Source of the DNA: a virus
Taxonomy: Duplodnaviria > Heunggongvirae > Uroviricota > Caudoviricetes
Length of the DNA stretch: 34,493 nucleotides
Strand: one strand, 5' to 3'
Virus record (IMG/VR): IMGVR_UViG_2698536450_000021
Location: 1-34,493 of that record
The first letter of the stretch is position 1; each line of letters begins with the position of its first letter. The position numbers and the translations under genes are program-made. The notes under the pieces were generated by a model. That model made no database searches. It saw only the letters and a list, made by a program, of their open reading frames with translations, and was not told where the DNA came from. Positions 462 to 7,902 of the stretch are shown here, one piece after another.

Positions 462-760
462 CAAGGGCAGTGCGTATCCATCAATTAAAAATTGCACCTA
501 AGTATTTCAACGCTGTGGTTGCAGGTCAAAAGACGGCTGAACTTCGTAAAGACGATCGTGGCTATAAAGTTGGTGATGTTCTTTCTCTTTGCGAATGGAA
601 GCATGCTGTATTTACGGGTAGGGAATGGGCCGCTGTTATCTCTCATGTGCTTCCGGCTAATGACGTCATGGCAGTTTCAGAAAAATGGGTGATGCTATCA
701 ATTCGCCCATTAACCCCATTAGAAGCTTTAGGATATGTTATTGCAGGAGGTGCTGTATGA
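458..760 (+). CDS. DUF3850/ASCH-like (PUA-fold) small protein
   Basis: ATG at 458 preceded by GGAGG. The N-terminal block [35 protein letters not shown] matches the DUF3850/ASCH pattern as I remember it. The longer track ORF from 398 is an upstream in-frame extension. Confidence 0.6.
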
Positions 761-1614
761 GCACCATCCTGAAATGGGCGGGAAATAAAACCGCCATTAT
801 GTTCGAACTGAAAAAACACCTTCCTGCTGGCCCGCGACTGGTTGAACCTTTCGCGGGTTCCTGTGCTGTGATGATGGAGACGGATTACCCCAGCTATCTG
901 GTTGCGGATATTAATCCTGATTTAATCAACCTCTATAAAAAGGTTGCCGCTGATTGTGAATCGTTTATATCTCGCGCCAGAGCTTTATTTGAGGAAGCAA
1001 ACAGGGAGGTGGCTTATTACAACATAAGGCAGGAGTTTAATTACTCCACTGAAATTACTGATTTCATGAAAGCGGTATATTTCCTGTATCTCAATCGTCA
1101 TGGTTACCGTGGATTATGTCGCTATAACAAGAGCGGGCATTTCAACATTCCGTACGGTAATTATAAAAATCCGTATTTCCCTGAAAAAGAAATTCGCGCA
1201 TTTGCAGAGAAAGCCCAGCGTGCAACGTTTATCTGCGCAAGCTTTGATGAAACGCTGGCGATGCTGCAGGTGGGGGATGTGGTGTATTGCGATCCGCCGT
1301 ATGACGGTACGTTTTCCGGCTATCACACTGATGGTTTCACTGAAGATGACCAGTATCACCTGGCATCCGTTCTTGAACATCGGTCATCAGAAGGACATCC
1401 GGTCATTGTTTCTAACAGTGATACATCCCTGATCCGTTCGCTGTATCGCAATTTTACTCACCACTACATCAAGGCAAAACGCAGCATCGGTGTAGCAGCT
1501 GGTGAGAGTAAATCTTCAACAGAAATCATCGCTGTTTCCGGGCCGCGCTGCTGGGTGGGATTTGATCCTTCGCGTGGCGTGGATAGTTCTGCCGTGTACG
1601 GAGTGCGTGCATGA
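757..1614 (+). CDS. DNA N6-adenine methyltransferase (Dam-like)
   Basis: N-terminal ILKWAGNK motif and catalytic DPPY (1291-1302); ATG at 757 after GGAGG; stop overlaps the start of gene A (ATGA). Track ORF 685-1614 is an upstream extension. Confidence 0.85.
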
Positions 1615-4025
1615 GCCATGCTGATATGAACAACTGCAGCGGCTTTAACGAGGTCGCCGCAGCATTCTCATGGAACAGCCCGAAAAAGGCCATTAACCCT
1701 TATCTGGACCCGGCGGAAGTTGCGCCGGTTTCTGTGCTTTCAAACCTGATCACTCTGTACGCTACCGATAACGAGCAGGAACAACTGCGCCGCGAGGCTC
1801 TGAGTGATCAGGTATGGGAGCGTTATTTCTTTAATGAATCACGTGATCCTGTCCAGCGCGAAATGGAGCAGGATAAGCTCATTAGCCGGGCAAAGCTGGC
1901 GCATGAGCAGCAGCGTTTTAATCCGGGCATGGTCATCCTGGCGGACGTTAACGCCCAGCCTTCCCATATCAGCAAGCCGCTGATGCAACGTATTGAATAC
2001 TTCAGCAGCCTGGGCAGGCCAAAGGCTTATTCCCGCTATTTGCGTGAGACGATTAAGCCATGTCTGGAACGACTGGAGCATGTACGCGACAGTCAGCTAT
2101 CCACTTCTTTTCGCTTTATGGCAAGCCATGAAGGGCTGGACGGTCTGCTGATCCTGCCTGAAATGAGTCAGGATCAGGTGAAACGCCTGTCCACCCTGGT
2201 AGCTGCGCATATGAGCATGTGCCTTGATGCCGCTTGTGGCGATTTGTATGCCACCGATGACGTTAAGCCAGAAGAAATCCGCAAGACATGGGAAAAGGTG
2301 GCGGCGGAAACCCTGCGACTGGATGTCATACCACCTGCGTTTGAGCAACTCCGCCGGAAAAGAAACCGCCGTAAACCCGTGCCCTATGAACTCATTCCGG
2401 GGTCGCTGGCGCGTATGCTGTGCGCCGACTGGTGGTATCGGAAATTGTGGAAGATGCGTTGCGAATGGCGGGAAGAGCAGTTGCGTGCTGTTTGCCTGGT
2501 CAGCAAAAAAGCATCTCCCTATGTCAGCTATGAAGCCGTGATGCATAAACGTGAGCAGCGCCGTAAGTCGCTGGAGTTTTTCCGTTCTCATGAACTGGTG
2601 AACGAAGACGGCGACACGCTGGACATGGAGGATGTGGTAAACGCCAGCAGCAGCAACCCTGCGCATCGCCGCAATGAGATGATGGCCTGTGTTAAAGGTC
2701 TGGAGCTTATCGCGGAAATGCGCGGTGACTGCGCCGTTTTCTACACCATCACCTGTCCGTCACGTTTCCATTCCACGCTAAATAACGGCAGGCCCAACCC
2801 GACCTGGACAAATGCGACGGTAAGACAAAGCAGTGATTATCTGGTCGGCATGTTTGCTGCATTTCGTAAGGCGATGCACAAAGCCGGGTTGCGCTGGTAT
2901 GGCGTGCGGGTGGCTGAGCCGCATCATGACGGCACAGTTCACTGGCACCTGTTGTGTTTCATGCGCAAAAAAGACCGCCGCGCCATTACTGCATTGTTGC
3001 GTAAGTTTGCTATCCGTGAAGACCGCGAGGAGCTGGGTAATAACACGGGGCCACGCTTTAAGTCTGAGCTGATAAACCCGCGCAAAGGAACGCCGACTAG
3101 CTACATCGCGAAATACATCAGTAAGAACATTGACGGGCGTGGTCTGGCTGGCGAGATCAGCAAGGAAACGGGTAAATCTCTGCGTGATAACGCTGAATAC
3201 GTTAATGCCTGGGCGTCTCTGCATCGTGTTCAGCAATTCCGCTTCTTTGGCATTCCGGGGCGTCAGGCTTACCGTGAACTGCGATTGCTGGCTGGTCAGG
3301 CGGCAAGGCAACAGGGTGACAAAAAAGCAGGTGCGCCGGTACTGGATAACCCGCGCCTTGATGCCATTCTGGCTGCAGCTGATGCTGGTTGTTTTGCCAC
3401 CTACATCATGAAGCAGGGCGGCGTACTGGTTCCCCGTAAATATCACCTCATCAGAACCGCTTATGAAATCAACGAAGAGCCGACCGCCTATGGCGATCAC
3501 GGCATTCGTATTTATGGCATCTGGTCACCCATTGCAGAGGGCAAAATCTGCACTCATGCCGTGAAGTGGAAAATGGTTCGTAAGGCCGTTGACGTTCAGG
3601 AGGCGGCAGCCGACCAGGGCGCTTGCGCCCCTTGGACTCGTGGCAATAACTGTCCCCTTGCTGAAAATTTGAACCAACAGGAGAAAGATAAATCAGCTGA
3701 TGGGGACACCAGAACGGATATTACCCGCATGGATGACAAGGAGTTGCACGATTATCTGCATAGTATGAGCAAAAAAGAGCGCCGGGAACTGGCAGCAAGG
3801 TTACGCCTGGTTAAGCCGAAACGGCGTAAAGACTACAAACAGCGAATTACAGATCATCAGCGACAGCAGCTCGTCTATGAACTGAAGTCCAGAGGATTTG
3901 ATGGCAGCGAGAAAGAGGTCGATTTACTCCTTCGCGGTGGCAGTATTCCGTCAGGAGCAGGCCTGCGTATCTTCTATCGGAACCAGCGTTTGCAGGAAGA
4001 TGATAAGTGGAGAAACCTGTATTAA
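1611..4025 (+). CDS. replication initiation endonuclease, P2 gpA / 186 A family (rolling-circle nickase)
   Basis: 804-aa ORF carrying the conserved tyrosine block [12 protein letters not shown]; position upstream of the cos/late region matches P2/186 organisation. Confidence 0.88.
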
Positions 4026-4117
4026 TTACGCGGGTTAACAATTCGTGCTCTTAATAATACCAGGCATATCAGGCTGATGAACGTAAAAAAACGTTTTACA
4101 TCAGTAAGATTATTATA

Positions 4118-4152
4118 TACTGTAAATATAAACAGTGGTTATATTTACAGTA
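4118..4152 (+). promoter_or_regulatory. LexA (SOS) box TACTGTAAATATAAACAGTG (4118-4137), overlapped by a weaker half-matching box (4133-4152), in the promoter region of the small-ORF/DinI-like operon
   Basis: CTGT-N8-ACAG core at 4120-4135 with an AT-rich spacer; 14-bp perfect inverted arms 4118-4131 / 4139-4152; TTTACA -35-like hexamer at 4095-4100; AGGAGG RBS then ATG at 4178. Confidence 0.6.
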
Positions 4153-4177
4153 TTGCTTTGGTGTCATAGGAGGAAAG

Positions 4178-4366
4178 ATGCAGGACTATTTTTTGGAGTC
4201 TTTGAAGCTCCAGCGCATTGATTTTTTTCTTAAGCTTGTAGCGGCTAGTGAGTGTAGTGATGAAGAGAAGGGGCTGGCTCTGCAGTGGGTTTCTGAACTG
4301 ACAGATGAACTCATGGCAAAAATCAGAACCCACGAATACAACCGCTCAATGGATGTCATCAGCTGA
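4178..4366 (+). CDS. small hypothetical protein (62 aa), first gene of the putative SOS-controlled operon
   Basis: ORF with strong RBS (AGGAGG 4169-4174) directly downstream of the LexA box; no recognisable domain. Confidence 0.45.
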   Translation: MQDYFLESLKLQRIDFFLKLVAASECSDEEKGLALQWVSELTDELMAKIRTHEYNRSMDVIS

Positions 4367-4376
4367 GGTGACTTTT

Positions 4377-4610
4377 ATGCGCATTGAAATAATGATCGAT
4401 AAAGAGCAGAAGATTAGCCAGTCTACACTGGACGCCCTTGAATCCGAGCTTTACCGCAATCTGCGCCCCCTGTATCCCAAAACGGTAATTCGTATTCGCA
4501 AAGGTAGCTCTAACGGTGTGGAACTGACCGGACTGCAACTGGACGAAGAAAGAAAACAAGTGATGAAAATTATGCAGAAGGTGTGGGAAGACGACAGCTG
4601 GCTGCATTAA
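4377..4610 (+). CDS. DinI-like protein (phage Tum/DinI family)
   Basis: 77 aa; MRIE...DALESEL...KIMQKVWEDDSW aligns by eye along its length with E. coli DinI. ATG at 4377; the track ORF from 4305 is an upstream extension. Confidence 0.75.
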   Translation: MRIEIMIDKEQKISQSTLDALESELYRNLRPLYPKTVIRIRKGSSNGVELTGLQLDEERKQVMKIMQKVWEDDSWLH

Positions 4611-4745
4611 GAAACGTTGCTGGCGTCTGAACTTGTTTCTGGCGTCAGCAAGGTTGAACAACGAGCCCTTGCGAGGCGTTAGCTCTGTAGTGCATGTCTA
4701 TGCCGCATGAGATCGCATGATCGTTTGAGGATCGTTTTTGCTAAG

Positions 4746-4770
4746 GCCCGCCAGAACTGGCGGGCTTTTG
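4746..4770 (+). terminator. rho-independent terminator after the DinI-like operon
   Basis: GCCCGCCAG / CTGGCGGGC 9-bp perfect stem followed by TTTT. Confidence 0.55.
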
Positions 4771-4814
4771 CGTAGATCATGCACCTGCATGAAAACCACT
4801 ACATAAAGCGGGCA

Positions 4815-4833
4815 GGCGTGGCGGGGATACGAG
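4815..4833. other. cos-like sequence (possible cohesive-end site) GGCGTGGCGGGGATACGAG
   Basis: First 12-13 nt resemble the P2/186 cohesive-end motif GGCG(A/T)GGCGGGGA as I recall it, followed by a GCGCGCT run. Recalled from memory, not verified. Confidence 0.3.
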
Positions 4834-4885
4834 CGCGCGCTATCACGTAAAATAGGCAAAATACTTCTGGAAAACAGAAAGTTGA

Positions 4886-6832
<1,947 letters not shown>

Positions 6833-6836
6833 TGAA

Positions 6837-6871
6837 CAGCCCTAACGTTATGAATGCTAAGGCTGATTTTT
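6837..6871 (+). terminator. possible terminator downstream of the RT gene
   Basis: Imperfect hairpin CAGCC...GGCTG (6837-6865) followed by ATTTTT. Confidence 0.35.
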
Positions 6872-6873
6872 CG

Positions 6874-7902
6874 TTAAAATTTATATGGTTTGAATTGTAA
6901 TATATTATCTTCAAGCCATTTATTTAATTCCTGCATCCTTTTCTGTAAGGGTATTAATTCGTTCCTCACAAACACTAAACTCGCTTTTTCCACATCCCCA
7001 AACCCCCCGACATTATTTGGCATAATCCCCATCATTTGCGGTGGCACACGGTGCGCTGCCATCATGTCATCGCGGCTGACATTTTTGATATTCAGAAACT
7101 CATCCTTCGCCGCCACTTCTGACAACGGGATAATCTGAAGCCCGTCCTTTTTACCGTTAGGCGAGTACATAAACAGGTTACGGAAGTTACCAGGACCTTT
7201 GGCGCTTTTCATCGCATTGCGGAGGTTGTTCACATCCTCCTGGTTCTGCGCTGCATCGGTCATGTACATGATGAAGCCTGCATGACTGCCGTTAATGTAA
7301 TACTTGCGGCGGAACAGCGTGGCGGACTCGTTGAGCAGAGCTGACGGAATGGCAGAAAGATAACCGGGCAGGCCGTAGATCTCCTGGTTGATGTCCGGTT
7401 CCATCAGATGAAAAATGTTGCCTTTCGTGAACTGATACGGCTGCGTAGTCATGCCGTATTGCACAAACCAGTAGGTATCAAGGTCTAACCCGCGTCGGGT
7501 GTATTTTGCCAGTGCAGGCTCAAGGGCGATAACTTCACCGAAGCGGTTCGTGCGTTTCTCCAGGTAGGCGTTACCAAAAACCAGATAGTCCTGTACAAAA
7601 CGCGAAAAAGCCTGCTGGCTGAGCAGCGGGTGAGGGATGTAGGTGCTGGTCAGAATGTTGCACTTCACTGCAATCGGTGAGCTGTGATGCACGGCGGCGC
7701 GGAAGGTTCGCGCCAGTCCGTCGAAACTCACAGGCGGCTCGTACCAACGATCCATCTGTACGCATTCCACATAGTCCAGCAGTTCGCGGCGGTCCAGAAC
7801 AGGAACGGGATCACCGAAGCTGAATGCTTCGGCTGAAGTCTGGCTTTTATGCTGGATCTGTTTCGTCGACGCAGCGCGGTTCTTCTTACTCTTTCCCATC
7901 AA
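6874..7902 (-). CDS. portal protein (P2 gpQ-like)
   Basis: 342-aa ORF recognised as P2-family portal; start overlaps the terminase stop. Confidence 0.88.
   Translation of the reverse strand: MMGKSKKNRAASTKQIQHKSQTSAEAFSFGDPVPVLDRRELLDYVECVQMDRWYEPPVSFDGLARTFRAAVHHSSPIAVKCNILTSTYIPHPLLSQQAFSRFVQDYLVFGNAYLEKRTNRFGEVIALEPALAKYTRRGLDLDTYWFVQYGMTTQPYQFTKGNIFHLMEPDINQEIYGLPGYLSAIPSALLNESATLFRRKYYINGSHAGFIMYMTDAAQNQEDVNNLRNAMKSAKGPGNFRNLFMYSPNGKKDGLQIIPLSEVAAKDEFLNIKNVSRDDMMAAHRVPPQMMGIMPNNVGGFGDVEKASLVFVRNELIPLQKRMQELNKWLEDNILQFKPYKF

Follow-up and report, generated by a model that had tools for sequence, protein, structure and literature searches.

The region directly downstream of replication gene A in this 34,493-nucleotide stretch of viral DNA (hereafter, the window) is very probably an operon for the SOS induction of a prophage of the Fels-2/186 type, in which a LexA-repressed promoter controls two small genes encoding the antirepressor TumA and the DinI-like protein TumB. 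The module as such is already known: it has been described for Fels-2 and PSP3 and tested genetically in DuoHS, a prophage of E. coli HS, and its mechanism is established. Two points are added by the present analysis, namely the profile evidence that ties an unannotated family of 62-amino-acid (62-aa) proteins to Tum of phage 186 and the colicin-type double LexA operator of the Fels-2 group, as opposed to the single box found in 186 and PSP3. The finding accounts for the link between DNA damage and a prophage that carries a retron, and nothing fundamental changes.

Genomic Context of the Operon

The window is a prophage of the Fels-2/186 type (Peduoviridae; P2/186/Fels-2-type), and its main features are listed in Table 1. 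The tum-type module is located directly 3' of gene A and ahead of the cos/packaging end, an order that is also found in 186, PSP3, and Fels-2. The immunity region (int, cI, apl, and cII) is situated ahead of position 1 and is not part of the window. Positions 31387-34206 constitute the right end of the prophage; the integration site is the same as that of DuoHS, which resides between rcdA and ybjL. The gene for a Dam-type methylase that precedes gene A is also present in DuoHS and in the E. coli phage 813R9.

Table 1. Features of the SOS induction operon and of the surrounding prophage (window positions)
Feature	Positions	Strand	Remarks
DUF2732 gene and TraR/DksA zinc-finger gene			Close to the window start
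D12-class N6-adenine (Dam-type) DNA methyltransferase gene	685-1614	+	Directly 5' of, and overlapping, replication gene A
Replication gene A (gpA)	1611-4025		Pfam Phage_GPA, E 1e-127
Putative -35 hexamer TTTACA	4095-4100	+	Equivalent to that of 186 p95; 5/6 match to TTGACA; 17 nt 5' of TACTGT
Putative -10 hexamer TACTGT	4118-4123		First six bases of LexA box 1
LexA box 1, TACTGTAAATATAAACAGTG	4118-4137		17/20 match to the consensus
LexA box 2, CAGTGGTTATATTTACAGTA	4133-4152		Shares 5 nt with box 1, at an offset of 15 nt
Shine-Dalgarno sequence of tumA, AGGAGG	4168-4173	+	4 nt 5' of the tumA start codon (ATG, 4178); unchanged in relatives
tumA-type gene (ORF1)	4178-4366	+	62 aa; predicted antirepressor acting on prophage CI
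Shine-Dalgarno sequence of tumB, GAGGTG	4365-4370	+	Overlaps the tumA stop codon; 6 nt 5' of the ATG at 4377
tumB-type gene (ORF2)	4377-4610	+	77 aa; DinI family
Strong RNA hairpin, no U-tract	4617-4651	+	Just 3' of tumB; shared with 813R9
Likely intrinsic terminator of the SOS operon	4743-4769	+	GC-rich stem followed by TTTT
13-nt inverted repeat	4904-4916 and 5022-5034		Flanks the presumed msr-msd region
Retron reverse transcriptase gene	5072-6832	+	586 aa; PADLOC RT-Toprim_I-C, E 4e-217
Portal and terminase genes	from 6874	-	
ogr	31387-31638		End of the late genes
Host ybjL	31874-33559	-	After ogr
Host ybjM	33829-34206		After ybjL

LexA Boxes and the SOS Promoter

The initial annotation proposed a near-consensus SOS box overlapping the promoter of a two-gene unit whose second product is DinI-like and which is related to 186 tum. 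All of these elements are borne out, except that the promoter remains a putative one, called by comparison with relatives. In particular, the 34.5-kb window contains CTGT-N8-ACAG only once, in TACTGTAAATATAAACAGTG (box 1), which is also its sole near-consensus LexA box. Taken alone, the 16-mer motif is not rare, as 0.45 occurrences are expected per window by chance; when 20-mers with up to three mismatches to the LexA consensus were considered, none of 100 dinucleotide-preserving shuffles reached the level of box 1. Moreover, a position matrix derived from E. coli SOS boxes was used to score every 20-mer of the window. This matrix fails to reproduce published absolute heterology indices, so its values were used as relative ranks only, and in that ranking box 1 is the top-scoring site of the window, with a heterology index of ~4.4 against 11.5 for the next unrelated site. 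With the same matrix, 30 shuffled windows yielded a best score of 7.4 (mean, 11.3). Box 1 is clearly non-random.

A second LexA box (box 2), which the initial annotation had missed, overlaps the first. It is the second-best LexA-like site of the window (7.9-8.7 on the same relative scale), and its score lies inside the range of chromosomal SOS boxes once colicin sites are omitted from the matrix. By itself, this score is no better than that of the best chance site among the 30 shuffles; box 2 is accepted because its conservation and the precedent of colicin operators support it, and not because of its score. An alignment was made of five promoter regions, namely that of the window and those of Fels-2, 813R9, Yersinia MLG42, and Klebsiella phi4.1; in this part, MLG42 and phi4.1 are only ~80% identical to the window. 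The half-sites of both boxes are invariant across relatives and the AT-rich spacers vary (for box 2, this refers to Fels-2, DuoHS, MLG42, and phi4.1), and box 2 is placed exactly 15 nt downstream of box 1 in the window, in these four prophages and phages, and in two Col plasmids. 813R9, otherwise a 98%-identical relative, is a natural single-box variant: its box 1 is intact and its box 2 has decayed to CAGTGGTTATGCGTACAGTA (L003, positions 2634-2653), with a score above 11.

The putative promoter has the layout of 186 p95, which is annotated as TTCACA, an 18-nt spacer, and TACTGT, with one half of the LexA box, the first, serving as the -10 element; TTTACA and TACTGT of the window are separated by 17 nt. 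The -35 hexamer TTTACA is invariant in all five aligned regions. A generic promoter scan made no call at this site because the -10 element matches TATAAT at three of six positions only, and the SOS promoter is inferred from analogy and conservation. At the level of sequence, a LexA operator lies over the putative promoter of the unit, and LexA would be expected to occupy both boxes.

The Operator Resembles Those of Colicin Genes

When the 71-nt operator region was compared with plasmids by blastn, hundreds of small mobilizable plasmids were matched; in the two that were inspected, the match is located just 5' of genes for colicin-like pore formers. Window positions 4112-4159 are 82-86% identical to these Col plasmids over ~48 nt (L008, 1501-1549, and L009, 1501-1550; E down to 6e-6). 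Like the ColE1-type colicin operators, the operator of the window consists of two 20-nt boxes with a 15-nt offset and a 5-nt overlap, CAGTG (GCTGTATATAAAAACAGTGGTTATATATACAGCA in the plasmid and ACTGTAAATATAAACAGTGGTTATATTTACAGTA in the window), and both boxes score within the range of genuine sites. The overlapping boxes of colicin operators are bound by two LexA dimers, which results in very tight repression with no detectable basal expression (PMC2994835). Colicin operators control a toxin, whereas the operator of the window controls an antirepressor. In contrast to the window, PSP3 and 186 each have a single near-perfect LexA box.

The similarity between the two kinds of operator extends in part beyond the bases constrained by LexA, e.g., to TGTCA.AG..GG ahead of the start codon. 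The resemblance may reflect either convergence or shared ancestry, and acquisition from Col-plasmid promoters is conceivable because the similarity runs slightly past the LexA-constrained bases. It is a tentative suggestion, less probable than its opposite, that the Fels-2 group uses a colicin-style pair of individually weaker boxes, perhaps derived from Col plasmids, and that this arrangement confers an induction logic of its own. If this suggestion is true, the double-box operator could lower spontaneous induction and make the response later, higher in threshold, and all-or-none; dual-box and single-box designs could set different induction thresholds among P2-like prophages. No description of a difference between double and single boxes at tum promoters was found in the searchable literature, though Bunny et al. 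(2002) may cover it.

TumA Belongs to a Family Related to the Antirepressor Half of 186 Tum

Tum of phage 186 is a LexA-controlled antirepressor that keeps CI off its operator (PMC3121763; PMC7708051), and biochemical evidence for the sequestration of CI by Tum is attributed to Shearwin et al. (1998) in PMC3121763 and PMC7708051. When both ORFs were compared with 186 Tum, as had been proposed, ORF2 aligned by BLASTP, whereas ORF1 did so by profile methods only: BLASTP gave no pairwise alignment of ORF1 with 186 Tum, of ORF1 with TumA of PSP3, or of PSP3 TumA with 186 Tum. The homology of ORF1 to Tum rests on profile methods for this reason. In an hhalign comparison, a profile of 27 diverse ORF1-family sequences was set against one of 10 sequences related to the N-terminal 70 residues of 186 Tum, and residues 2-48 of ORF1 aligned without gaps with residues 2-48 of the N-terminal half of Tum (probability 96.1%, E 3.1e-9); across these residues, some members of the ORF1 family are, by eye, ~37% identical to 186 Tum. 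Independent support comes from the PHROGs collection, where ORF1 falls into phrog_698, with further matches to phrog_8554 and phrog_1993; the same three groups are matched by 186 Tum (phrog_1993, 1e-22; phrog_8554, 1.4e-11; and phrog_698, 2.4e-5 over residues 7-44), and PSP3 TumA belongs to phrog_1993. As judged from these profiles, ORF1 and the antirepressor half of 186 Tum are homologous, though diverged.

The family is large and of uniform size. In a database clustered at 90%, 484 clusters are related to ORF1, nearly all of them ~62 aa in length or longer through N-terminal miscalls, and clustering at 50% leaves 66 representatives with identities down to ~36%. The genera concerned include Escherichia, Salmonella, Klebsiella, Enterobacter, Pectobacterium, and others, and the 62-aa length is kept across Enterobacterales. 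An AlphaFold model of ORF1 (mean pLDDT, 85.7) predicts a two-helix hairpin with helices at residues 2-22 and 28-61, and Cys26, which is near-invariant in the family, lies in the predicted loop. When this model was used for a fold search of the PDB, all matches were generic helical hairpins with E >0.001, which is uninformative on function; a profile search of PDB sequences was also empty. The family thus presents an annotation gap, as it is listed as 'unknown function' in PHROGs and as 'hypothetical protein' by PGAP (RefSeq WP_001154431.1); one UniRef entry is labelled 'Levan regulatory protein'. In practical terms, the 62-aa family can safely be named TumA-type antirepressor. A literature search on TumA/TumB found nothing relevant.

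The closest approach, short of bench work, to a direct test of the mechanism suggested by the initial annotation is provided by the genetics of DuoHS, taken as a proxy for the window prophage. Its gene ECHS_RS04495, which encodes a 62-aa 'hypothetical protein', is 98% identical to ORF1 and is followed by the DinI-like gene ECHS_RS04500; from the promoter to tumB, the DNA of the window and of DuoHS is 97% identical. Ortiz de Ora et al. (2025; PMC12055606) defined ECHS_RS04495 as the tum gene of DuoHS, and it was shown that either an in-frame deletion of tum or a lexA(Ind-) mutation abolishes induction of this prophage by mitomycin C (PMC12055606). The tum locus of DuoHS and the genes STM2728 and STM2726.1 of Fels-2 represent essentially the same element as that of the window, sharing both LexA boxes, the 10-nt spacer, the frame relation of the two genes, and the attachment site next to ybjL; the differences amount to two substitutions within the box 2 spacer and to the cargo 3' of tumB, where the window has a retron, Fels-2 an orf97-like gene, and DuoHS other hypothetical genes. 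The locus was matched in 1281 of 5426 complete E. coli genomes, i.e., about a quarter, and 636 of the matches cover at least 80% of the query.

It might be argued that the operon is instead an SOS-induced accessory ('moron') unit whose DinI-like protein modulates host RecA and the SOS response only, that ORF1 has an unrelated function, and that the prophage is induced by another route. ORF1 has no family in Pfam or PADLOC, its annotation in PGAP and PHROGs says nothing of an antirepressor, and CI lies outside the window, hence there is no cognate partner to show. Taken together, these propositions are nevertheless improbable, given the profile homology of ORF1 to the antirepressor half of Tum, the phenotype of the 98%-identical DuoHS gene, and a synteny that is the same as in 186. 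TumA is preferred here as the antirepressor of the operon.

TumB Is a Member of the DinI Family

The DinI-like nature of the second product is confirmed: ORF2 matches the Pfam family DinI (PF06183) over all profile positions (1-63 of 63) with E 6.6e-23 and 81.3 bits, well over the curated cut-off of 24.2. ORF2 also aligns with residues 71-145 of 186 Tum at 41% identity and without gaps (E 3e-24), matches the E. coli DinI structure (PDB 1GHH) with E 2.7e-6, and belongs to phrog_189. Thus, the unit as a whole is related to Tum, with ORF2 corresponding to the DinI-like C-terminal half and ORF1, at the profile level, to the N-terminal half. Like E. coli DinI, TumB matches the family over its full length; unlike DinI, it is phage-borne and shares an operon with an antirepressor, and its effect on RecA is a prediction. 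TumB most likely acts on RecA filaments and modulates the SOS signal, rather than acting on CI.

Two Genes Rather than One Broken Gene

The two ORFs are as initially described, in different frames and 10 nt apart, and it was left open at that stage whether they form a genuine two-gene arrangement or a frameshifted tum. Only the first of these possibilities has stood: a real tumA/tumB arrangement is present. Strong purifying selection acts on both ORFs (dN/dS ~0.08); among the window, MLG42, and phi4.1, dN/dS is 0.08 for ORF1 and 0.03-0.08 for ORF2, with dS values of ~0.7-1.6. The two parts are not joined in one polypeptide as in the 146-aa Tum of 186, and, with two ORFs that have their own Shine-Dalgarno sequences, the element is the split tumA/tumB variant of PSP3 and Fels-2 and not the fused form. 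A split of tum in two in Fels-2 and PSP3 was reported by Lemire et al. (2011; PMC3121763), who cite a personal communication from G. E. Christie. Moreover, the relatives of the N-terminal half of 186 Tum are mostly short stand-alone proteins, which makes the fusion seen in 186 appear exceptional.

A single 186-like tum gene that was recently frameshifted would make the module a pseudogene and leave a prophage that is no longer SOS-inducible. Such a history could be read from the fact that 186 Tum carries the same halves in the same order in one chain, that ORF1 and ORF2 sum to about the length of Tum, and that the ORF2 frame has no stop in the 25 codons that precede the ATG. It is largely refuted by conservation, dN/dS, and the genetics of DuoHS, and has hardly any probability left: a 62-aa length is kept in hundreds of sequences from many genera, selection acts on both ORFs, ORF2 has its own Shine-Dalgarno sequence and ATG, the N-terminal half of 186 Tum is related mainly to stand-alone proteins, deletion of the 62-aa gene alone abolishes induction of DuoHS, and the split is known from other prophages.

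The relative frame of the two genes is +1 with a 10-nt spacer in the window, Fels-2, and DuoHS, 0 with a 12-nt spacer in MLG42, 0 with a 3-nt spacer in PSP3, and +2 with an 11-nt spacer in phi4.1, which argues against a fusion by programmed frameshifting or readthrough. An additional Tum-like fusion protein made by a programmed +1 frameshift (at the A-run 4318-4322) or, in relatives, by stop codon readthrough finds some encouragement in the ORF2 frame being open from 4302, which overlaps the last 65 nt of ORF1 and includes the AAAAA run, and in the in-frame genes of PSP3 and MLG42 with one stop codon between them, but it is equally implausible and was rejected, since no one recoding mechanism suits all relatives, the open overlap is only 31 nt in phi4.1 and zero in MLG42, and an open stretch of 25 codons is not unusual by chance.

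Proposed Mechanism of Induction

With tumA and tumB taken as separate genes, the operon would function as follows. In an undamaged cell, one or two LexA dimers would be bound to the boxes at 4118-4152, covering the -10 element together with the probable site of transcription start, and the promoter would be silent. Upon DNA damage, activated RecA would promote the self-cleavage of LexA, and the operon would be transcribed. TumA, a predicted two-helix hairpin, would then bind the prophage CI protein and keep it off its operators, so that the lytic promoter would fire and the prophage would be induced; direct binding of CI by TumA in the window phage is proposed here by analogy with 186 Tum. TumB would be translated separately and would probably tune RecA activity.

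This assignment of roles can be compared with the way in which PSP3 and the Fels-2 group have diverged. Conservation of TumB between the two is high (dN 0.04-0.14), which is consistent with a host target, whereas TumA is unalignable, which is consistent with co-variation with the immunity repressor. Such a mosaic pattern fits a division of labour between TumA and TumB.

Comparison with 186 and PSP3

The p95-tum region of 186 resembles the window in that a LexA-repressed promoter follows gene A and an antirepressor module precedes a DinI-like module. In 186, both modules are fused in one protein, whereas in the window they are encoded by separate ORFs. The 186 record also contains a separate 77-aa DinI-like product that starts at an internal GTG and is annotated as modulating SOS induction. 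In 186, tum is followed by orf97, which is absent in the window.

PSP3 is closer to the window in its organization: it shares the two-gene split, the gene order, the position after gene A, a LexA box over the promoter, and a closely related TumB. Its record describes tumA as 'similar to 5' end 186 tum; UV induction of prophage' and tumB as 'similar to dinI and 3' end of 186 tum', and the antirepressor activity of PSP3 resides in the upstream gene (PMC3121763). However, PSP3 TumA represents another sub-family (phrog_1993, as against phrog_698 in the window) that cannot be aligned with ORF1 by BLASTP, and the PSP3 genes are in frame, with TAG and 3 nt between them, whereas those of the window are not.

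Downstream Region and Cargo

Two RNA structures lie 3' of tumB. The position of the first hairpin is occupied in Fels-2 by the orf97-like gene. The stretch 4605-4800 folds with z = -4.9, and from conservation and folding, the stem at 4743-4769 is likely to be the terminator of the SOS operon; a generic terminator scan missed it. A block that includes this terminator (4693-4841) is common to the window, 813R9, and Fels-2, and the cargo differs beyond it. The junction with the cargo follows directly after GAGCGCGCGC, at ~4841, past which a retron is found in the window, a protein with a Hypoth_Ymh domain in 813R9, and STM2723.1 in Fels-2.

The interval from tum to the portal gene is the known cargo and defence hotspot of P2-like phages. 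In the window, an Ec67/Eco2-type retron (4842-6832) lies directly 3' of the SOS operon. The mechanically called retron ORF (4892-6832, 646 aa) begins too early. A search of positions 4000-7200 against Rfam gave no match, retron RNA included. According to PMC6868368, which refers to Dodd and Egan (1996), retron Ec67 replaced DNA between a terminator and cos of a 186-related prophage, and the placement of the retron in the window matches that description of Ec67.
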